This document shows, piece after piece, positions 8,196 to 57,477 of a stretch of 64,000 nucleotides of DNA. The notes under the pieces are model-generated. The model was not told the origin of the DNA, ran no database searches, and saw only the letters and a program-made list of their open reading frames with translations. How positions within the stretch are numbered: the stretch's first letter is position 1; each line of letters opens with the position of its first letter. Origin of the DNA: Bacillota bacterium (GTDB taxonomy: Bacteria > Bacillota > Dehalobacteriia > UBA4068 > UBA4997); the NCBI GenBank assembly GCA_021769035.1, contig JAETTP010000001.1:35408-99407 (forward strand), written 5' to 3'. Both the position numbers and the translations under genes were made by a program.

Positions 8196-8231
8196 AAGCC
8201 TGCTAAAATTAAAGGAGATTTTACCATAAAA

Positions 8232-8275
8232 CATATCAAAACGGCGTTCCCGATAATCAGGAGCGCCGTTTTAAT
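8232..8275. terminator. bidirectional intrinsic terminator
   Basis: aacggcgttcc...ggagcgccgtt hairpin with flanking T/A runs between convergent genes. Confidence 0.5.
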
Positions 8276-8281
8276 ATTTCC

Positions 8282-8647
8282 TTACATATCCGCGCTGACG
8301 TCGCCGGTGCCGCCGGTGGCCATATCCGCGCCGTTCAGATAACCGGTGTTCGGCGTGGTTCTGGTGCCGCCGTTGCTGCGGTAACTGCTGTTGGTGGCTC
8401 CATTGTAACCGGCGCCGTTGTAACCGGTGCCGCCAAAGTTATCCAACCCATAGCCGACGCCATAACCCACCCCGGTGTAAGTGGTGCCGTTGCCACCGTT
8501 GTAACTGGTGGGAGTGCCCGTTGTCCCGGAACCGGAGCCCATGCCGGTGCTACCGGTTTTGCTGTTGCTGCAACCGGCCAATGCCGCCAAAAGCAGCAGG
8601 CAGGCCGCTAAAAGACAAGCCAATCTTTTCATTTTAAGTTTAGCCAT
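8282..8647 (-). CDS. Gly/Thr/Asn-rich lipoprotein
   Basis: Signal peptide with lipobox LAGC. Low-complexity GTG/YNG repeats. Start at MAKLK with GGAGG RBS. Confidence 0.6.
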   Translation of the reverse strand: MAKLKMKRLACLLAACLLLLAALAGCSNSKTGSTGMGSGSGTTGTPTSYNGGNGTTYTGVGYGVGYGLDNFGGTGYNGAGYNGATNSSYRSNGGTRTTPNTGYLNGADMATGGTGDVSADM

Positions 8648-8896
8648 TGTTTTATCCTCCATACTAATTTTTTATAACTGCGTTTTTAGTATGTGGTTTT
8701 GCGGCCAAACTATTAGCTCAAATTCTGGCAAATTTTTAAGATATTGACAACCAAAAGCAAAACGAAAACCCCCGCGGCAACAGGGGGCTTTCGCTGTGCA
8801 TTTTGTGTTAAGATGAATACACATTTTGTTCAATATTATTATAGCACTTAAACCAAATCGTTGTCGAGATGCAAACGATATTAAGAAGGTGCAAAA

Positions 8897-8938
8897 ATGC
8901 TTGATTTCTCCATTTTAAAATTGAACAAACAAAAATAG
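8897..8938 (+). other. decayed 13-codon peptide ORF (MLDFSILKLNKQK) at the toxin position of a type I TA-like module
   Basis: ATG after AAGAAGGTG. Ends in the shared aatagccgcc...ggcggctatt terminator as the full-length copies do. Confidence 0.25.
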
Positions 8939-9023
8939 CCGCCCAGTTTCGCGATTGTCGCGGCTATTTTTATTATAGAAGCAAAATCGAGGGCTGACCC
9001 GGTTTAAGGGATCCGCTCTTTGT
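8928..9023 (-). ncRNA. antisense sRNA, family 1 (orphan/decayed-toxin copy)
   Basis: Minus-strand TTGACA(9058-9053)-17-TATACT(9035-9030). Body aaatacaaagagcggatcccttaaaccgggtcagccctc... homologous to copies at 11.5, 22.3 and 53.3 kb. Ends in hairpin plus U-run. Confidence 0.4.
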
Positions 9024-9712
9024 ATTTATAGTATAACAAGAAAAATTTGATTTGTCAACTGGTTTTTTGCCAAATTCATACAAAACAGCTAGGCTTACTA
9101 GGCAAGTATTTTGAAGACCAGGTGAAGAATTTGTGAAAAAAAATTAAAAATAATCTGTATTTTAAACACAAAACCCCTTTACGGATTGCAAAGGATGTGG
9201 TATAATCAGCTAAGATAAACTCTGTGTAAACTGATTTGGTTGTGTCAGGTGATGAGGCACAGGGTTTGGGGCCGCAAAAAACGGCCTGGGAGGAGGTTAT
9301 AATTAACGTTCCTTATGTGCTGAAAAGCGCTCCGCCAAAGCTTGCCGGCTTTGGGCAGCTGTTACAGGGGCAGCCCGCCAAAGGCCAACTGCCAAAAGCG
9401 GCCGCGCAACCCAGCATTACATATAGGAAAGCATTTGAAAATGCGCCGTGCCAAAACGTCGGCTGAAGCTAGCAGCCGGCCCCTTGGCCGAAGAACGTTC
9501 ATTCAGCCGCTGGCACGGGCAAAATTACGCAAACAGCAAAAAGGTTCCGTTTGCCCAATTTGGTAGAAGCAATATAAAAGAGGACAGCTAAAAACAGCAA
9601 TTATTTTTTCTTCTCCTCTTTTTGCCGGCTGTTGCCGGTTTTGCTAAAAACAAACGCAGCTTGCCTTGCTTTTTGCTAACAAATGCAAAAAAGAAAAAAG
9701 GAGGAACAAAAC

Positions 9713-11140
9713 ATGAAAGACAAAAAGTTAGTCAGAATCATTGGCATTGTGCTTTTTGCGGCGTTGATCATCTGGACTGTTTCCACAATCATGGGCCAGC
9801 CCGCGGCTCCGAGTGCAGACGCATTGGGCGGCGCTGACTCAGAAGCGTACAAAACCGCTAAAGCAGCCTATGATGCTGAGATCCTGCAGGGCCAGGCTTA
9901 TCTGACCTTGGGCGTTTTGGTAGTAATCGCTTACTTCTTCATCACTGAAGCATTCCCGATTGCTATCAGCGCAATGGTTATTCCTTGTTATTACTCTGCT
10001 TTCGGCTTTATGCCCTTTAAGACGGCATTCGGCGGCTTGGTTGATAGCTCGGTTATCCTGTTCGCCGGCATGTTCCTGGTTGGCGGCGCAATGTTCCAAA
10101 CCGGTTTGGCGCAGAAGATTGGTATCACCTGCGTTAAGGCGGCCGGCGGTTCCGAAACCAAATTGATCCTGTTCATCATGATCATCACCGGTATTCTGTC
10201 CGCATTCCTGTCCAACACCGGTACGGTTGCCTGCTTGCTGCCCGTTTGCTTGGGTATTGCTGATTCCCAGGGTATGAACCGCCCGAAGCTGTTGATGCCT
10301 TTGGCAATGATGGCTTCCTCCGGTGGTATGATTACCATGGCTGGTACCCCTCCGAATATGTCCGCTGCCGCTACCTTGACTAACAGCGGCATTGACATCG
10401 GCTTCTTCGATTTCGCTTGGGCTGGTATCCCGATTGCTATCCTGTCCATCATCTATATGATGTTCGTTGGCAACCGCCTGATCCCGGAGCGTCATTCCGA
10501 CGTGCAAATGGCTGACGATGAAGAGGGCAAAGTTTATGACGTTAAGAAACAGATCATTTCCGGCGTTGTGCTGGTTGCTGTGGTTGCTGTTATGGCTACC
10601 GGCGTTATCGGCTTGGAAACTGCAGCTGTTATCGGCGGCTTGATTTGCGTATTCACCGGCTGCTTGACTGAAAAAGAAGCTTACCAGTCTATCGACTGGA
10701 CCACCATCTTCCTGTTTGCCGGTGCTTTGGGCTTGGCAAACGCTATGAAGACCACTGGCGCTGGCGCTTTGTTGGCTGACAAGGTTATCGGCATGCTGGG
10801 TGGTTCTCCGAACCCCTACGTTCTGATGATCGTTCTGTTCTTGCTGGCTGGCGGCCTGACCCAGTTCATGTCCAACACCGCTGCTGCGGCTCTGCTCTGC
10901 CCCATCGGCTTGTCTATTGCTGAGGGCTTGGGCGCTGACCCGACCGGCGTTGTTTTGGCCATTGGCTTCTCCTGCTCCGCTGCTTACTGCACACCTGTAG
11001 CAACTCCTCCGAACACCATGGTTTACGGTCCTGGCGGCTTGACCTTCATGGATTACGTAAAAGTCGGCGTTCCGCTGTTCTTGCTGGTTGGCGTAGCCTG
11101 CGTAGCTATTATCCCGATTATCTGGCCTTTCTTCCCGTGA
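9713..11140 (+). CDS. SLC13/DASS-family anion:Na+ symporter
   Basis: Two FLSNT-type hairpin motifs, ~13 TM. AAAGGAGGAAC RBS before ATG 9713. Confidence 0.8.
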   Translation: MKDKKLVRIIGIVLFAALIIWTVSTIMGQPAAPSADALGGADSEAYKTAKAAYDAEILQGQAYLTLGVLVVIAYFFITEAFPIAISAMVIPCYYSAFGFMPFKTAFGGLVDSSVILFAGMFLVGGAMFQTGLAQKIGITCVKAAGGSETKLILFIMIITGILSAFLSNTGTVACLLPVCLGIADSQGMNRPKLLMPLAMMASSGGMITMAGTPPNMSAAATLTNSGIDIGFFDFAWAGIPIAILSIIYMMFVGNRLIPERHSDVQMADDEEGKVYDVKKQIISGVVLVAVVAVMATGVIGLETAAVIGGLICVFTGCLTEKEAYQSIDWTTIFLFAGALGLANAMKTTGAGALLADKVIGMLGGSPNPYVLMIVLFLLAGGLTQFMSNTAAAALLCPIGLSIAEGLGADPTGVVLAIGFSCSAAYCTPVATPPNTMVYGPGGLTFMDYVKVGVPLFLLVGVACVAIIPIIWPFFP

Positions 11141-11255: not shown

Positions 11256-11284
11256 TTGCTATTTAGCAAAAACTATAGTATAAT
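11256..11284 (+). promoter_or_regulatory. sigma-A type promoter of peptide A mRNA
   Basis: TTGCTA-17-TATAAT. Gives a ~130-nt 5' UTR. Confidence 0.5.
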
Positions 11285-11419
11285 ATTAATTACAAAGAGT
11301 TGAAACCTTAAACAGGCGGTTAGCCCTCGGACGCAAAGCAATACATTCGTGAAAAATGTATGGTTGAACGAAAGAGGGATTGGGGCCCTCCTCACAAAAA
11401 CAACGAGGAGGTGATGTTA

Positions 11420-11503
11420 ATGAGTTTTATGGAAGTCGCAACGTTTTTATTAGTACTTATAGCGTTTGCCGATGTGATATTAACCCATTGCAAAAAGAAA
11501 TAG
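11420..11503 (+). CDS. 27-aa hydrophobic Lys-tailed peptide (MSFMEVATFLLVLIAFADVILTHCKKK), putative type I toxin
   Basis: GAGGAGG SD 7 nt before ATG. That SD is perfectly complementary to an upstream CCTCCTC (SD-sequestering hairpin). Stop lies inside the terminator hairpin shared with the convergent sRNA. Confidence 0.55.
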   Translation: MSFMEVATFLLVLIAFADVILTHCKKK

Positions 11504-11584
11504 CCGCCCAGTTTCGCAGACTCGCGGCTATTCTTTTTAGCTAGCATCTGAGGGCTGACCCAGTTTAAGGGATCGGCTCTTTGT
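11492..11584 (-). ncRNA. antisense sRNA, family 1, putative type I antitoxin
   Basis: Minus-strand TTGACA(11619-11614)-17-TATAAT(11596-11591). Terminator is the same hairpin (11499-11532) followed by U-run. Overlaps peptide A 3' end by ~45 nt. Confidence 0.5.
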
Positions 11585-11760
11585 ACTTATATTATAGCAT
11601 TTGTTTTTGTTGTTGTCAATATGCCAAAAGCGGTTGAATAGAAAGTTTATGTTGTAATTTGTTGGTAAATATGCTATAATGGGACAGAAAAGAGTTGATT
11701 CTTTGGATGGCGGCCAACCTTACTCGTAAACTTTCGTTAAGCGAGGAAGGGGGTGAGCTC

Positions 11761-11844
11761 ATGAGTTTTGTTGAAGTAATTCTTTTACTTAGCTTTCTCA
11801 TTGAGGTTGTGGATTTTGTTTACCGAATCACAACAAAAAAATAG
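11761..11844 (+). CDS. 27-aa hydrophobic peptide variant (MSFVEVILLLSFLIEVVDFVYRITTKK), putative type I toxin
   Basis: Own promoter TTGTAA(11652)-17-TATAAT(11675). [13 protein letters not shown] sequestered by upstream ccttactcg. Stop sits in the atagccg...cggctat terminator. Confidence 0.5.
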   Translation: MSFVEVILLLSFLIEVVDFVYRITTKK

Positions 11845-11930
11845 CCGACCCGACCAAAGGCTGCGGCTATTTTTTGTACAAAATAGTTGAGTTAAGGTTG
11901 ATTGCTTGAAAATGCAGTCAACTCTTTTCA
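11836..11930 (-). ncRNA. antisense sRNA, divergent body, putative antitoxin of peptide B
   Basis: Minus-strand TTGACA(11965-11960)-17-TATAAT(11942-11937). Shared bidirectional terminator with peptide B. Confidence 0.45.
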
Positions 11931-12249
11931 TCTATTATTATAGCATTTGTTTTTGTTGTTGTCAATGCCCTTTTGCCGCCCAAACTCTTTAATGCCTAAT
12001 TTTTACCTAACCGCACCAGCAATACCTTTTCTCAATCGCTAAGTGTTCATAGAGGATTACATTTGCCTAAAGTCAAATGTATGCGTGAACACTAAGCTCT
12101 TGCTACGCCTTACAGGCTAAGCACTCGCTAAGTGTTCACGCAAAAAAACAGTAGACTTTTTGAGCTTGTGGGTGTAAAATATATTTATAAAAATTGTTAA
12201 AGCTTTCAGAAATCGACTTTGCTAACTTGCTCGATTGGAGGAATCAGCG

Positions 12250-22158: not shown

Positions 22159-22277
22159 GTATTTTGGCGTATTTTTTAGTAAAATAATACTGTATTATTA
22201 AGCCTCGGTTCGCCAGCTCAAAAGTTTTTAACGGTTCTGCGATTGACAAAAACAATTTTCAATGCTATAATATAAAT

Positions 22278-22370
22278 ATAAAGAGCCGACCCCTCAAACC
22301 GGGTCAGCCCTCAAAAGCTTCAGTTAAAAATAGCCGTTACCTTTGGAGCAGGGCGGCTATTTCTTTTTGC
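22278..22370 (+). ncRNA. antisense sRNA, family 1, putative type I antitoxin (copy C)
   Basis: TTGACA(22243)-17-TATAAT(22266). Body aaagagccgacccctcaaaccgggtcagccctc. Terminator aatagccg...cggctatttcttttt shared with convergent peptide C. Confidence 0.5.
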
Positions 22371-22440
22371 AATGGGTTAATATCACATCTGCCAACGCTA
22401 TAAGTACTAATAAAAACGTTGCGACCTCCATAAAACTCAT
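22357..22440 (-). CDS. 27-aa hydrophobic peptide (MSFMEVATFLLVLIALADVILTHCKKK), putative type I toxin copy C
   Basis: One residue different from copy A. Same GAGGAGG SD with CCTCCTC anti-SD. Minus-strand promoter TTGCAT(22602-22597)-17-TATAAT(22579-22574). Homologous ~130-nt 5' UTR. Confidence 0.55.
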   Translation of the reverse strand: MSFMEVATFLLVLIALADVILTHCKKK

Positions 22441-22682
22441 CAACATCACCTCCTCTCCTTGCGTTGAGGAGGGCCCCAATCCCTCAGTCAGCCAACTGTA
22501 CATTTTTCACCAATGCACCGTTTAACTTCCAAGGGCTAACCGCCTGTCTGAATTTTCAGCTCTTTGTATTTATATTATACAACCTTTTAGTTTTGTATGC
22601 AAGCTTATTTTAAAGTTGCCAAATCCTCCCTGCTTGTGCTATAATATATATTTAATAACCAGCACAAGCGAGGGATTTTTTT

Positions 22683-47364: not shown

Positions 47365-47472
47365 ATGCATCTTCCAGTTTATTCTTATGTCTTATCGGCT
47401 GTCAATGTAGTAATATTAGTTGCTATGACCTATTTGGTCTATCGAGTAGCTAAATTTTTCCTGAAAAAGTAA
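47365..47472 (+). CDS. 35-aa hydrophobic Lys-tailed membrane peptide (MHLPVYSYVLSAVNVVILVAMTYLVYRVAKFFLKK)
   Basis: Promoter TTGACA-17-TAAAAT at ~47306. SD GTGAGGT. Strong terminator gagccgcccttttcaaacaaagggcggctttttttgtg immediately after stop. Confidence 0.45.
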   Translation: MHLPVYSYVLSAVNVVILVAMTYLVYRVAKFFLKK

Positions 47473-47539
47473 AGTTTAAGAGAACGAGCCGCCCTTTTCA
47501 AACAAAGGGCGGCTTTTTTTGTGTAAACACTTAGCGATT

Positions 47540-47950
47540 GACAAGTCCACTTTTTTTAGATAACAGCTTTTCCACCTGTGCAGAAAAAAAACTTTTTCTT
47601 AAACCGAAATCTTCAAAAAAAACCTATTGTGATATTCCGTTAATTATAGTATAATATTCAGACACAGAAAAGTTTTTCCACCGAGTTTTACAGATTTTGG
47701 AAAACTTTGTGCACATTGGCTGTTATTAATCTGTGTAAAACTAATTATGCCAGTTAAAAAAAGGTTTTTTGCACAAAATTACCCCAGGCAATTAACATTT
47801 TATACCCACGCCAAAAAAGGCAGCAAAACCTTATAAAATCTGGCTGCAAAAAGTTTTCCACAAAATAAACACAGCTTATTATTATTACCACCATTTAAAT
47901 AACTATAATAATATATATGAGCCTCACAACAATAATATTACCAAAGGAGT
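47540..47950. other. oriC region (dnaA-dnaN intergenic)
   Basis: Multiple DnaA-box-like 9-mers (ttttccacc x2, gttttccaca). AT-rich unwinding stretch. Internal TTGTGA-17-TATAAT promoter. Confidence 0.5.
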
Positions 47951-52762: not shown

Positions 52763-52877
52763 ATCATCACCTACTTTCTGCCACACCATAATTATATAAA
52801 AAGCGTGACAAAAAGTCAATAGTTTTTTTGAAAAAATTCAGATTGACAAAAACAATTTAAAATGCTATAATAATAAA

Positions 52878-52963
52878 AAAGGCACCGTAAGTAAGCGGTT
52901 AGCCTCATCGTTTTGGTGTTATTTTTTAACAACCGTCACTACTGACACTAGTGGCGGTTTTTG
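52878..52963 (+). ncRNA. antisense sRNA X4, putative antitoxin of peptide D2
   Basis: TTGACA(52843)-17-TATAAT(52866). Terminator ccgtcact...agtggcgg plus U5. Overlaps last codons of convergent peptide. Confidence 0.45.
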
Positions 52964-53031
52964 CTATGTCTAAACTTAATCTCAATCGAAATTTTAAAAA
53001 TTCCAATATGAAATATCAGCTTTATTGGCAT
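52948..53031 (-). CDS. 27-aa amphipathic basic-tailed peptide (MPIKLIFHIGIFKISIEIKFRHSKNRH), putative type I toxin D2
   Basis: AAGGAGGTG SD 7 nt before ATG. Anti-SD atcctcc-aaaa-ggaggtg hairpin. Minus-strand promoter TTGACA(53238-53233)-17-TATAAT(53215-53210). ~170-nt 5' UTR carrying the CGCTAAGTG hairpin motif. Confidence 0.5.
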   Translation of the reverse strand: MPIKLIFHIGIFKISIEIKFRHSKNRH

Positions 53032-53308
53032 AGGCCTCACCTCCTTTTGGAGGATATTGACTAACCGTTAAGTGAGCACTTAGCGACTGCCAAGGCCGCA
53101 GGCCGCAGACAGAGCTTAGTGCGAACAAATACCGCAGGTGCAAATAGAATTGTCTGAAAACAAAACTTTGCTCCTGCGGTGCCTACCGTTTGTTACGATG
53201 CCTGTTTAAATTATACAAATTATTGTTCTTATTGTCAAGCTGCGCATAAGTTTTTGCTAACCTAATTTTGCGATTGACAAAAGCGATTTGAAATGCTATA
53301 ATAAAAGC

Positions 53309-53403
53309 ACAAAGAGCCGACTCCTTAAACCGGGTCAGCCATCAGAATTTAACAATTACATAAGTAATAGCCGTTTTTCTTGGTCAGGGCGGCTATTTTT
53401 TTT
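53309..53403 (+). ncRNA. antisense sRNA, family 1, orphan copy D (toxin decayed)
   Basis: TTGACA(53274)-17-TATAAT(53297). Body aagcacaaagagccgactccttaaaccgggtcagcc. Terminator aatagccg...cggctat-U9. Opposite strand 53404-53440 keeps only the 3' half of the toxin ORF (…LVLITFADLILTHCKKK*) with no start. Confidence 0.45.
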
Positions 53404-53508
53404 GCAATGGGTTAATATTAAATCGGCAAACGTTATAAGAACTAATAAAACCGCTACTAAATAGCCCTTAGTAGCGGTTTAGTATTATTTTTTTTGAATG
53501 TCAATATC

Positions 53509-55338: not shown

Positions 55339-55487
55339 ATTAAGCCCTCCTTTTTTATGTTCAGCTTTGCGCTTTACATTTGTTTTATAGTACAAGATAT
55401 GCAGTTGTAACGGGGGCGGTGCTTGTCTGCCGGATTTGGCTTGTTTTGTTTTAAATTTTTCCTTAGGTATTGAAGCGAGAAAAAAAA

Positions 55488-55845
55488 TGTGGTATAATGT
55501 GAGTACTCAGTGAAATCAAGCCGCAGGCGATGATTGAACTGTAGTCGAACAAATACCATAGTGCAATCTGTTGTGATAAGGTGAGATAACCTTGTTTCTA
55601 TGGTATAATGTGAGTACTCAGTGAAATCAAGCCGCAGGCGATGATTGAACTGTAGTCGAACAAATACCATAGTGCAATCTGTTGTGATAAGGTGAGATAA
55701 CCTTGTTCCTATGGTATAATGTGAGTACTCAGTGAAATCAAGCCGCAGGCGATGATTGAACTGTAGTTGAACAAATACCATAGTGCAATCTGTTGTGATA
55801 AGGTGAGATAACCTTGTTCCTATGGTATAATAATATAATATTAAG
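55488..55845 (+). repeat. 111-bp tandem direct repeat, 3 full and 1 partial copies, each with an extended -10 promoter and a TGAGTACTCA palindrome
   Basis: TATAAT at 55493, 55604, 55715 and 55826 (period exactly 111). Copies differ at 1-2 positions. First copy has -35 TTGAAG. Confidence 0.9.
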
Positions 55846-55886: not shown

Positions 55887-56024
55887 ATGAAGCATATTCA
55901 AGTTGTAATTGCCGGGAAATTGCAGGAAACTGCTAAAAACGGCGGCTGCGGCAGCTGCCAAAGCTCCTGTCAGTCGGCATGCAAGACCTCTTGCACTGTT
56001 GGCAATCAGGCCTGCGAGAAATAA
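55887..56024 (+). CDS. SCIFF (six-Cys-in-forty-five) ranthipeptide precursor
   Basis: 45 aa MKHIQVVIAGKLQETAKNGGCGSCQSSCQSACKTSCTVGNQACEK with exactly six Cys in the canonical spacing. GGAGG RBS. Confidence 0.85.
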   Translation: MKHIQVVIAGKLQETAKNGGCGSCQSSCQSACKTSCTVGNQACEK

Positions 56025-56034
56025 TCGCTGGCTA

Positions 56035-56075
56035 TTCCGCAAAAAGGGGCGCTTTTGAACAGCGCCCCTTTCTTA
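56035..56075 (+). terminator. attenuator/terminator hairpin between precursor and maturase
   Basis: aaaaaggggcgcttttgaacagcgcccctttctt. Weak U-run. Confidence 0.4.
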
Positions 56076-56112
56076 TCGGATTAAATTTTGTTTATAAAAG
56101 GAAGTTGATTTT

Positions 56113-57477
56113 ATGGAGCAAATAACAGCTGCCGATTTGGCAAAGCTGCATTGGTTTGCAGTGCCGGACGGCTTTTTGCTTTTGGACATAAACAGCGGCT
56201 CCGTGCTGCGTATTGACGAAGCCACCGCCGCTTGCTTGGACAAGCTACAAAACGGCGAGGCTGTGGCCGAGGGCAGCGCCGAGGCGGAAATTTTGGCGGA
56301 GCTGGCCCAGCTGCGGGCTGACGGCCTGCTTTTTACAGAGGACGCCTACCAGGATAAATATCAGCCGCCGGCGCCGGTGTTGAAATCCCTGTGCTTGAAC
56401 GTTTCCCACGACTGCGATTTGCGCTGTCGCTACTGTTTTGCTTCCACCGGCAGCTTTGGCGGCAAACGGGCCCGCATGAGTTTTGAGGTGGGCGCGGCGG
56501 CTCTGGATTATCTGCTGGAACATTCCGGCAGCCGTAAATTTTTGGAAGTGGATTTTTTTGGCGGCGAACCGCTTTTGAATATCGACGTGGTAAAACGGCT
56601 GGTGGCTTACGGCCGGAAGCGGGAAAAGTATTTTGGCAAAACCCTGCGCTTCACCTTTACCACCAACTGCGTGGGCCTGACCCCGGAAATTTCCGCTTGG
56701 GCAGAGGAAAATAATATCAGCGTGGTTTTAAGCCACGACGGCCGGCCGGAAATGCACGACCGGCAGCGGGTTTTTCCAAATGGCAAGGGCAGCTATGAAA
56801 TTGTAACGGAGCGGATTAAGCAGTTTTTGGCCCAAAACAGCCGGGGCAACGCCATTGTGCGCGGCACCTATACGGCTTTTAATAAGGATTTTACAGAGGA
56901 TATTAAGCATTGGCTGGATTTGGGCTTTCCTCGGCTTTCTATGGAGCCGGCGGTGGAGCTGCCGGACGGCCCCGGCAGTGAGCGCTGCCTGCGGGAGGAG
57001 GATTTGCCGGCCCTGCGGCAGGAATATTGGCGCTTGGCCGATTTGTTCCAGCAGCGGCGCGAGGAGGGCCGGCCCTTTGAATTTTTCCATTTTAAACTGG
57101 ATTTGCGGCATGGCCCCTGCCTGCCTAAGCGGCTGACCGGCTGCGGTGCGGGCTATGAATATCTGGTGGTGACGCCGGAGGGGGATTTTTACCCTTGTCA
57201 TCAGTTTGTCGGCCGGGAGGGCTTCCGTCTGGGCAGCCTCAGCGAGGGTATCACCGAGGCCGGACGAGAGCTTGGCGAGCAATTCCGCCAGGCCCACGTT
57301 TACAACAAGCCCAAATGTCGGGCCTGTTGGGCGCGCTTTTTCTGTAGCGGCGGCTGCCACGCCAACGCGGAGCTTTTTCATCACGATATTTTGCAGCCTT
57401 ATGAATTGGGTTGTTCAATCAGTCAAATGCGCCTGGAGTGTGCGATTTGGCTGGCTGTTAAGGAGGTTGAAGCATGA
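56113..57477 (+). CDS. radical SAM/SPASM-domain SCIFF maturase (thioether-forming)
   Basis: CDLRCRYC radical SAM cluster motif. C-terminal SPASM Cys clusters (CGAG...CHQF...CRAC...CSGGCHA). Confidence 0.85.
   Translation: MEQITAADLAKLHWFAVPDGFLLLDINSGSVLRIDEATAACLDKLQNGEAVAEGSAEAEILAELAQLRADGLLFTEDAYQDKYQPPAPVLKSLCLNVSHDCDLRCRYCFASTGSFGGKRARMSFEVGAAALDYLLEHSGSRKFLEVDFFGGEPLLNIDVVKRLVAYGRKREKYFGKTLRFTFTTNCVGLTPEISAWAEENNISVVLSHDGRPEMHDRQRVFPNGKGSYEIVTERIKQFLAQNSRGNAIVRGTYTAFNKDFTEDIKHWLDLGFPRLSMEPAVELPDGPGSERCLREEDLPALRQEYWRLADLFQQRREEGRPFEFFHFKLDLRHGPCLPKRLTGCGAGYEYLVVTPEGDFYPCHQFVGREGFRLGSLSEGITEAGRELGEQFRQAHVYNKPKCRACWARFFCSGGCHANAELFHHDILQPYELGCSISQMRLECAIWLAVKEVEA

Follow-up and report, generated by a model that had tools for sequence, protein, structure and literature searches.

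Two Candidate Orphan Antitoxin sRNA Genes in a Probable Relic of Adjacent Type I Toxin–Antitoxin Modules of a Bacillota Bacterium

Introduction

RatA and SR4, the antitoxins of the type I toxin–antitoxin (TA) systems txpA/RatA and bsrG/SR4, overlap the 3' ends of their toxin genes, and par has a terminator that is shared by its two genes (PMC8167048). The 3' duplex of RatA and txpA is cut by RNase III, while 3' binding of SR4 to bsrG is coupled with a structural change at the Shine-Dalgarno (SD) sequence (PMC8167048). The TxpA family extends to Clostridiales (Fozo et al., PMC2887945). Orphan type I antitoxins are also known; the orz-only loci of E. coli are expressed (PMC11264685). Here we describe a locus of this kind at 8752-9058 of a 64,000-nucleotide (nt) stretch of contig JAETTP010000001.1 from a Bacillota bacterium; the whole stretch is called the window. 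In this interval, an antisense small RNA (sRNA) gene, sRNA-F, faces a toxin gene reduced to a stub, and a second short unit, X3, lies downstream of it on the same strand. The interval is likely to be the relic of two adjacent type I TA modules that have been reduced to a minus-strand tandem of two antitoxin-type sRNA genes.

The family of sRNA-F resembles TxpA/RatA and BsrG/SR4 of Bacillus subtilis, SprG/SprF of Staphylococcus aureus and EF3263 of Enterococcus faecalis in having a hydrophobic toxin with a charged tail and several paralogues per genome. It differs from this TxpA/Hol_Tox class in several respects. The overlap is the shared terminator only (~45-50 nt) and not a long stretch of 3' untranslated region (UTR), the toxins of the window and of the F type match neither Hol_Tox nor NCBIfam, the sRNA has no Rfam match, and toxin mRNA and sRNA have similar 5' domains. 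At the locus itself, the toxin gene is gone. With par of pAD1 (Fst RNA I/RNA II), the family shares convergent genes and one bidirectional terminator as the interaction site (PMC8167048). The 5' ends of the two RNAs are alike here and not complementary as in par, because the DNA repeat between 8988-9035 and a toxin leader at 11329-11279, found by BLAST, is inverted. The toxins hit no Fst-type model, and X3 has no partner toxin. The complementarity between the 5' region of the sRNA and the toxin start region seen in par DRa/DRb has a counterpart in the X family, to which X3 is compared below.

Two further systems are informative. Orphan OrzP of the zor-orz group in E. coli is an antitoxin gene that persists without the toxin open reading frame (ORF) and the pairing region, while other strains have the full pair (PMC11264685). 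It belongs to another family and phylum, its pairing site is in the 5' UTR, and it is expressed, while sRNA-F is known from sequence. SprA1AS of S. aureus is a 3' cis-encoded sRNA whose 5' domain acts on the RBS (ribosome-binding site) of the SprA1 toxin (PMC8167048). This layout is like that of the X-family modules X1 and X2 in the related locus L019; X3 shows no such target, and the likeness is one of layout only.

The sRNA-F Gene and Its Family

The earlier note on this DNA had read a minus-strand promoter TTGACA-17-TATACT, a conserved body and a terminator for this sRNA, and all three were recovered. The promoter (9024..9058, minus strand; hexamers at 9058..9030) consists of a -35 box TTGACA at 9058-9053, a 17-nt spacer, TG, and a -10 box TATACT at 9035-9030. 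In a consensus scan of 8200-9700 it matches at 11 of 12 positions, with TG before the -10 box. That scan returned six promoter-like sites, against 2.2 +/- 1.5 in shuffled sequences, and the promoters of sRNA-F and X3 ranked best. The sRNA-F promoter aligns with TTGACA-17-TGnTATAAT of its paralogues, and the related loci L033 and L017 keep both hexamers.

From its fold and from the family model R1, the transcript is predicted to span 8927..9023 on the minus strand (~97 nt). Its layout from 5' to 3' is ACAAAGAG, the 5' hairpin (~9019-8990, apical stem GAUCC/GGGUC), an AGCCCUC motif, an A/U-rich spacer, and the terminator. Folded as a 98-nt RNA, it forms the 5' hairpin and a 15-bp terminator (-28.3 kcal/mol, z = -2.1). 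The terminator (8931..8971; arms AAAAATAGCCGC at 8931-8942 and GCGGCTATTTTT at 8960-8971) is bidirectional and common to sRNA-F and the former toxin gene, whose stop codon TAG (8936-8938) lies within the stem. Thus an sRNA with its own promoter, an intrinsic terminator, convergent orientation and 3' overlap, as in a type I module, is predicted here. The sRNA-F sequence is 100% identical in the related loci L032 and L034 and 87% identical in L033.

A BLAST search with 8701-9100 turned up further copies in the window, at 11491-11599 (81.6% identity over 114 nt, E = 5e-23), 22369-22243 (E = 1e-18) and 53343-53294. In total, there are six copies in the window, and more than 12 others were found in metagenomes and metagenome-assembled genomes (MAGs). 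The copies share a bidirectional terminator with a small hydrophobic toxin gene. Besides F, they are M1 (~11.3-11.6 kb, toxin 11420-11503, MSFMEVATFLLVLIAFADVILTHCKKK), M2 (toxin 11761-11844), M3 (~22.2-22.6 kb, toxin 22357-22440, minus strand), M5 (toxin 52948-53031, minus strand) and M4 (~53.3 kb, 53265-53485). M1, M2, M3 and M5 are intact and have toxins of 27 residues. M4 is a second decayed copy, whose toxin gene has no first codons and abuts a hairpin at 53452-53482. The regions taken up by the intact modules are 11260-11960 (M1 and M2), 22240-22600 (M3) and 52840-53240 (M5).

The covariance model R1 was built from 13 members, F among them. In the window, its scores were 101.5 bits (M1), 95.1 (M3), 87.9 (F), 82.1 (M4), 35.6 (M2) and 25.7 (M5); members outside the training set scored 89.9 (L012a), 75.1 (L021), 59.8 (L019) and 41 bits (L022). 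Independent support for the membership of F, outside the training of R1, comes from the BLAST match to M1 (E = 5e-23). The family traits are all found in sRNA-F: ACAAAGAG, the 5' hairpin, AGCCCUC, the AAUAGCCG...CGGCUAUU terminator, and a promoter of the TTGACA-17-TGnTATAAT type.

The structure is conserved in an alignment of 19 members, which was fitted to R1 and so favours structure. In this alignment 94% of the cells are paired and five pairs change on both sides. None of 500 shuffles reached the observed value, and controls with slid partners were 26-49% paired. The terminator AAUAGCCG...CGGCUAUU is present in 19 of 19 members, with one compensatory G-C to A-U change in L022. The 5' hairpin is folded by every member and is kept via compensatory changes; its stems differ in distant members (GAUCC/GGGUC, GCCG/CGGC, CUGU/ACGG, and UGC/GCA).

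The family is uncatalogued. At the gathering threshold, Rfam 15 matched only three tRNAs in the whole window, and a permissive scan of 8650-9250 gave best scores of 13-22 bits against thresholds of 38-134 (for example, 17.5 against 50 for ohsC_RNA). A loose sRNA pattern scan of genomes returned one locus only, L001 in a Peptococcaceae MAG, while the metagenome scan returned nine real relatives and two chance matches. Neither the sRNA-F type nor the X type was found in two scans of viral contigs. The hosts are uncultured relatives of MAGs labelled Clostridium sp. or Peptococcaceae. Standard annotation misses these sRNA genes and the toxin genes of 27-31 codons; R1 and the X-family model R2 could find them.

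The Toxin Gene Stub and Intact Relatives of the Locus

Opposite sRNA-F, a stub of 13 codons, MLDFSILKLNKQK followed by the stop codon, is found on the plus strand at 8897..8938. It was delimited by tblastn and by comparison with L017, and it converges on sRNA-F. A relic of the RBS, GAAGGTG (8885..8891), stands 5 nt before the ATG. The hydrophobic toxin ORF of <60 aa, with a charged tail, that is expected of a type I module is present in L017, in L019 and in the window paralogues M1, M2, M3 and M5; at F, 13 codons are left and the hydrophobic segment is gone. This is the remnant ORF with a weak RBS that the earlier note had taken as the sign of a decayed module.

Comparison with related loci bears out the decay. 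L017 is a metagenome contig of 1183 nt that runs on into the conserved leader and the SLC13 permease gene of the window. In place of the stub, L017 carries a promoter, a ~120-nt leader with a CCCTCC...GGAGG hairpin, and an intact 31-codon ORF, MFWVNIIGLVVQVVQLGLQTIEFFLKLNKQK. L019 and L020 have an intact F-type toxin, MFWLNILSVVMQAIQLGVQLIQFISEQRKQK, and its sRNA beside the same permease gene. L021 shares the transglycosylase, lipoprotein and permease neighbours, and an intact module with a toxin of the MTFLEIS type occupies the same site. L019-L021 were found via a search for permease homologues, and L030-L035 via a search for lipoprotein homologues, together with context look-ups.

The other relatives carry the stub. 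L030-L032 are 96.5% identical to the window over 8282-9720, L034 and L035 are 91% identical to it, and L033 is 82% identical over 8894-9720 and 75% over 8285-8757. The same X3, stub and sRNA-F as in the window are present in L032 and L034. L033 has the same stub, and an intact sRNA-F behind TTGACA-17-TATAAT. L002-L007, which were the first contigs found to carry this permease gene, do not differ from the window (100% identity) and are hence uninformative. No module is present upstream of the permease gene in L022-L029 (87-91% permease identity); among these, only L022 and L023 hold an R1-family module, downstream of the permease gene.

Over its last 24 nt (8915-8938), the stub matches the L017 toxin gene's 3' end without a difference (...TIEFFLKLNKQK and stop). 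Homology between the window and L017 ends left of ~8913; identity drops from 96% within the terminator to 39% immediately left of the stub. The spacing between RBS and ATG in the stub equals that of the intact F-type genes (GGAGGTG-5 nt-ATG); therefore, the stub looks like an RBS and a start codon joined to the last codons. The F toxin gene would have lost its promoter, its leader and codons 2 to ~19, and would have kept a drifting RBS, the ATG and the last 8-12 codons.

The start signals of the stub appear to be drifting, because the RBS is GAAGGTG in the window and GAAAGTG, with a TTG start, in L033. The weak RBS is thus correct for this window, while the close relatives L032 and L034 still carry AAGGAGGTG. 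The L033 stub peptide, LLDFSNFKLNKQK, differs from that of the window by two amino acids. The ORF is still open in four lineages (the window, L032, L034 and L033). No plus-strand promoter was detected upstream of the stub between 8200 and 9177 by the consensus scan, and sRNA-F is therefore predicted to have no target in cis.

L033 and L017 are 97.3% identical from the toxin gene's 3' end through to where L017 stops. Near-identical backgrounds therefore either carry the toxin or lack it. The difference between the two loci indicates recombination or a presence/absence polymorphism, with a sharp breakpoint at the shared terminator, where the toxin gene ends. L017 has an intact toxin gene with leader and promoter, and in L033 the stub abuts the lipoprotein gene.

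A 24-nt match between 8733-8756 and 53515-53492 (TTTTTAAGATATTGACA...) adjoins the decayed modules F and M4 and is directed at the toxin stub both times. Its counterpart in L033, TTAACA, stands 18 nt before TAAATT and directly upstream of the stub. The match could be what is left of a plus-strand promoter, or just a similar A/T-rich upstream-plus-minus-35 sequence. A deletion or insertion signature is less favoured; a shared A/T-rich upstream-plus-TTGACA promoter sequence is more likely.

The Second Unit, X3

X3 lies downstream of sRNA-F on the minus strand. The promoter element TCGACA-18, the hairpin and the U-rich tract that the earlier note had seen here are present (8867..8838, 8787-8769 and 8768-8753). 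The promoter (8832..8867) has a -35 box TCGACA at 8867-8862, an 18-nt spacer, TGC, and a -10 box TATAAT at 8843-8838. It matches the consensus at 11 of 12 positions, with TG before the -10 box, and is 100% identical in L032 and L034. The predicted transcript of ~78 nt (8753..8831, both ends inferred) starts with the 5' region GAACAAAAUGUGUAUUCAUCUUAACACAAAAUGCACAGCG, followed by the terminator stem and the U tract. Its fold has -32 kcal/mol (z = -4.8), and 0 of 200 shuffles fold as well.

In the multiple alignment, the X3 promoter, body, terminator and most of the U tract fall within a single 122-nt insertion or deletion (8759..8880), which the window, L032 and L034 have and L033 and L021 lack.

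A second module type, X, was observed in L019, with the toxins MDVLFSFAIVVAGNVAFYYIIKWLDSIWR and MATLLYLVITVMGNALGITFAHFFVKWLDGDK, each with a convergent sRNA. The 5' parts of the X1 and X2 sRNAs pair with the start regions of their cognate toxins at -34.8 and -33.6 kcal/mol (z = -7.2 and -5.4). Two more X copies in L019 (X' and X2') bear a promoter but have no toxin next to them, and L021 has another X module. R2 was modelled on five X-family sRNAs from L019 and L021, with X3 left out. Its best match outside the training set was X3 in full length (window 8758-8837, 31.4 bits, E = 0.0014 by a rough calibration), while plain terminators scored 25-27 bits. BLAST aligned X3 with X2' of L019 at 79% over 38 nt.

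X3 is most likely a separate, dispensable unit and an orphan relative of antitoxins. The earlier note had offered an sRNA or an attenuator of the lipoprotein gene; the indel and the R2 match speak for the sRNA, and the attenuator is treated below. No convergent toxin ORF was found left of 8752, and no X-type toxin was found in the window by tblastn. A duplex scan of the whole window gave background-level matches only as X3 targets. Neither X3 nor sRNA-F shows complementarity to the lipoprotein mRNA beyond that of shuffled sequences.

The X family is itself unannotated and type I-like, with toxins of 29-32 residues (L019 2480-2800, 3265-3390 and 5540-6010; L021 4335-4610). Extra toxin-less sRNA copies occur in tandem, upstream of other antitoxin genes. 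The possibility that the X3 promoter is an inverted copy of the L021 toxin promoter was rejected, as the two do not align in either orientation.

Persistence of the Orphan sRNA Genes

Most likely, sRNA-F has survived its toxin as an orphan, since the toxin, unlike the antitoxin, is a part that cells can afford to lose first. Since a near-consensus promoter, hairpin and terminator are kept, sRNA-F is probably still transcribed. We infer from sequence that the orphan RNAs may be transcribed and may still function today.

Several observations weigh against the reading of the interval as a relic of two modules. The promoters and terminators of sRNA-F and X3 are consensus matches only. The family score of X3 is weak (E ~1e-3), with much of it from the terminator, and its complementarity to the X-type toxin start regions at hand is not significant (z > -1.6). 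The F-type toxin and the window toxins match no model in Pfam or NCBIfam, and their toxicity is assumed from peptide size, hydrophobicity and gene layout. The orphans F, L012b and M4 have the lowest scores of the close R1 training members (82-88 bits, against 90-101 for those with a toxin), which hints at relaxed constraint. Finally, the sharp mosaic boundary between L017 and L033 suggests a recombination event; the time for which sRNA-F has been an orphan would therefore be uncertain, and the conservation test described next would be weak.

In that test, the window and L033 differ at 13 of 99 positions in the sRNA body and at 30 of 119 in the next intergenic stretch (Fisher p = 0.027). Three substitutions in stems all keep pairing (U-G to C-G, C-G to U-G, and G-C to G-U), and the two RNAs fold alike. 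The promoter hexamers and TG, 14 positions, show one change; the chance of one or none is 0.10, which is not significant.

These data bear on the strongest alternative, namely that sRNA-F is kept by selection as a trans-acting antitoxin, buffering paralogous toxins such as M1 or re-entering F-type modules (anti-addiction). This is possible, though we hold it to be less probable than not. The orphan state is common to lineages that are ~13-25% diverged in non-coding DNA (window vs. L033), and all stub lineages keep the promoter hexamers, hairpin pairing and terminator. The greater conservation of the sRNA body than of the adjacent spacer and the toxin polymorphism between L017 and L033 fit with it, and so do M4 and L012b, independent orphans that also have intact sRNA genes. 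Moreover, 20 nt of sRNA-F match perfectly the 3' end of the mRNA for the M1 toxin, which is encoded 2.5 kb away; the match covers the stop codon and the terminator loop. Cross-pairing is therefore physically plausible, and sRNA-F may give some cross-protection against the neighbouring M1 toxin. On the other hand, promoter conservation does not reach significance, orphans score lowest in the core clade, recombination may have reset the clock, and no F-type toxin gene was found elsewhere in the 64-kb window by tblastn. In S. aureus, regulation by SprA1AS and by SprA2AS is confined to the cognate toxin in each case (PMC8167048).

A relic that outlived its toxin is thus ranked only modestly above a maintained trans-acting antitoxin. 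The locus shows the family in the middle of decay, with the toxin lost, the antitoxin RNA kept, and the toxin polymorphic in near-identical strains. It offers a case in which to ask whether an RNA antitoxin left on its own guards the cell against paralogous toxins or is simply the piece of a module that disappears last. Both the locus, in terms of the biology of this genome, and this kind of decay are ordinary.

For X3, the alternative is that it is no kin of antitoxins: its promoter would be a chance match, and its hairpin would just serve as a terminator, keeping sRNA-F transcription from running on and protecting the lipoprotein promoter. This is unlikely, although much of the R2 score does come from the terminator and the A-rich flank, generic terminators of L019 come within a few bits of it, and no X3 target was found. 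A chance promoter is hard to reconcile with an 11/12 match that has an extended -10 box and full conservation in L032 and L034, nor would promoter, body and terminator be expected to move together as one 122-nt stretch. The antisense of the X3 5' region reads like an X-toxin start (GTGTTAAGATGAATAC against GTGTTGAAATGGACGT of L019, 12/16 in an alignment by eye), and the closest relative of X3, X2' of L019, also bears a promoter. An orphan relative of antitoxins remains the preferred reading of X3.

Toxins and Regulation in the Intact Modules

Intact modules of the sRNA-F family were seen at M1 and M3 in the window and in L017, L019, L021, L009 and L011. The intact toxin mRNA is ~250 nt long and encodes a hydrophobic peptide of 27-31 residues with a Lys-rich tail. 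The F-type and window toxins gave no match to Pfam PF16935 (Hol_Tox) at E <= 10. The toxins of two distant members of the family, L008 and L013, matched it at 37 and 29.1 bits, above the 23.3-bit cut-off, and weakly matched the PepG1 model of NCBIfam. These matches link the sRNA-F family to the TxpA/BsrG/SprG class. A concatenated query of the tiny toxins had no words in common with any database protein, and by exact look-up the toxins are unnamed or "hypothetical protein".

The two RNAs of a cognate pair share the terminator and so have 46-51 nt of perfect complementarity at their 3' ends. In minimum free energy (MFE) folds of six intact toxin mRNAs, an upstream CCCUCC element pairs with the SD sequence in 6 of 6; in M1-type leaders, CCCUCCUC pairs with GAGGAGG. 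The folds of the four M1-type leaders (M1, M3, L009b and L011) have a further pairing, between a conserved 5' CCCUC(GG) and a mid-leader (CC)GAGGG. On the model of RatA/txpA and SR4/bsrG, the 3' duplex would be expected to bring about cleavage of the toxin mRNA, to prevent its translation, or both. We infer the mode of repression from that likeness. The conserved 5' hairpin of the sRNA would have some further role.

The toxin mRNA and the sRNA of one module begin with paralogous, similar 5' domains. Between 11286-11330 and 11545-11590, and likewise in M3, L009, L011, L017, L019 and L021, the variants agree within a module. Such agreement is possibly due to gene conversion or mimicry. As for a second pairing site, the sRNA 5' hairpin and the toxin leader offer only 5-9 bp, which are not conserved between modules; the U/C concordance between the two could be gene conversion.

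It can be speculated that the common 5' domain (ACAAAGAG, the hairpin, CU(U/C)AAAC and AGCCCUC) is a functional mimic and that orphans are kept as a pooled pan-antitoxin reserve, an idea that we regard as improbable. The sRNA element would then compete for the mid-leader (CC)GAGGG adjoining the SD-sequestering hairpin, or for a common protein or RNase. If this were true, every paralogous toxin mRNA would be within reach of the sRNA, whatever the 3' complementarity, and the persistence of orphans across lineages while the toxin comes and goes would be explained. A likeness of AAACUGGG between the M1 5' hairpin and the terminator loop was dismissed as a coincidence, since by eye it is not kept in M3, L017 and F.

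The Stub Reading Frame and the Lipoprotein Leader

The 13-codon ORF could itself have a function, whether it encodes a micropeptide or is part of a short plus-strand RNA titrating sRNA-F. Its openness in four lineages would fit this, as would the canonical AAGGAGGTG-5 nt-ATG in L032 and L034 and a weak plus-strand promoter-like TTAACA-18-TAAATT, read by eye, directly before the stub in L033. A function is nevertheless very unlikely. Thirteen codons stay open easily by chance, and both internal codon changes between the window and L033 alter the amino acid. The L033 start is TTG and the SD sequence is degraded in two lineages. In the window, the stub has no upstream plus-strand promoter, and its peptide is without the hydrophobic segment of the intact toxin.

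Just as improbable is the attenuator or leader of the lipoprotein gene at 8647 that the earlier note had considered for X3: although X3 is on the same strand upstream of that gene and its terminator ends ~105 nt before the start codon, lipoprotein orthologues keep the upstream block 8648-8752 without X3 (84% identity in L033; L021 8343-8748 at 68%), a separate promoter-like site (TTGTCA-17-CAGAAT, 9/12; 8722..8750, minus strand) stands between the X3 terminator and the lipoprotein gene in a block conserved in L021 and L033, and X3 pairs with the lipoprotein leader at -7.8 kcal/mol against a shuffle mean of -12.3.

Other Features of the Window

The SLC13 permease gene (9713-11140) has a ~500-nt leader at 9178-9712 with its own promoter, TTTACG-17-TATAAT (9178-9206). 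The leader contains blocks that are near-invariant in L017, L021 and L019, such as GCTAAGATAAACTCTGTGTAAAC, GTTCCTTATGTGCTGAAAAGCGC and CAGCATTACATATAGGAAAGC. It has no Rfam match and could represent a cis-regulatory RNA or leader not described before.

A short element, AACACTTAGCGA / GCTAAGTGTTCA, recurs beside several small-toxin modules, sometimes as an inverted pair (window 12040-12140, 47520-47545 and 53065-53130; L021 4262-4280). The stand-alone ORF at 47367-47474 encodes a small hydrophobic peptide, MHLPVYSYVLSAVNVVILVAMTYLVYRVAKFFLKK, and has its own promoter-like site and a strong terminator. R1 matches its terminator only (29 bits), and the exact peptide is found, unnamed, on 12 other contigs.

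At 55480-55835, three tandem repeats of ~119 nt, each with TGGTATAAT, stand directly upstream of the gene for a six-cysteine peptide, MKHIQVVIAGKLQETAKNGGCGSCQSSCQSACKTSCTVGNQACEK. An ORF of 454 residues (56113-57477) follows it within the region 55888-57477. The peptide presumably resembles SCIFF peptides, and a SCIFF peptide is expected to have a radical SAM partner.

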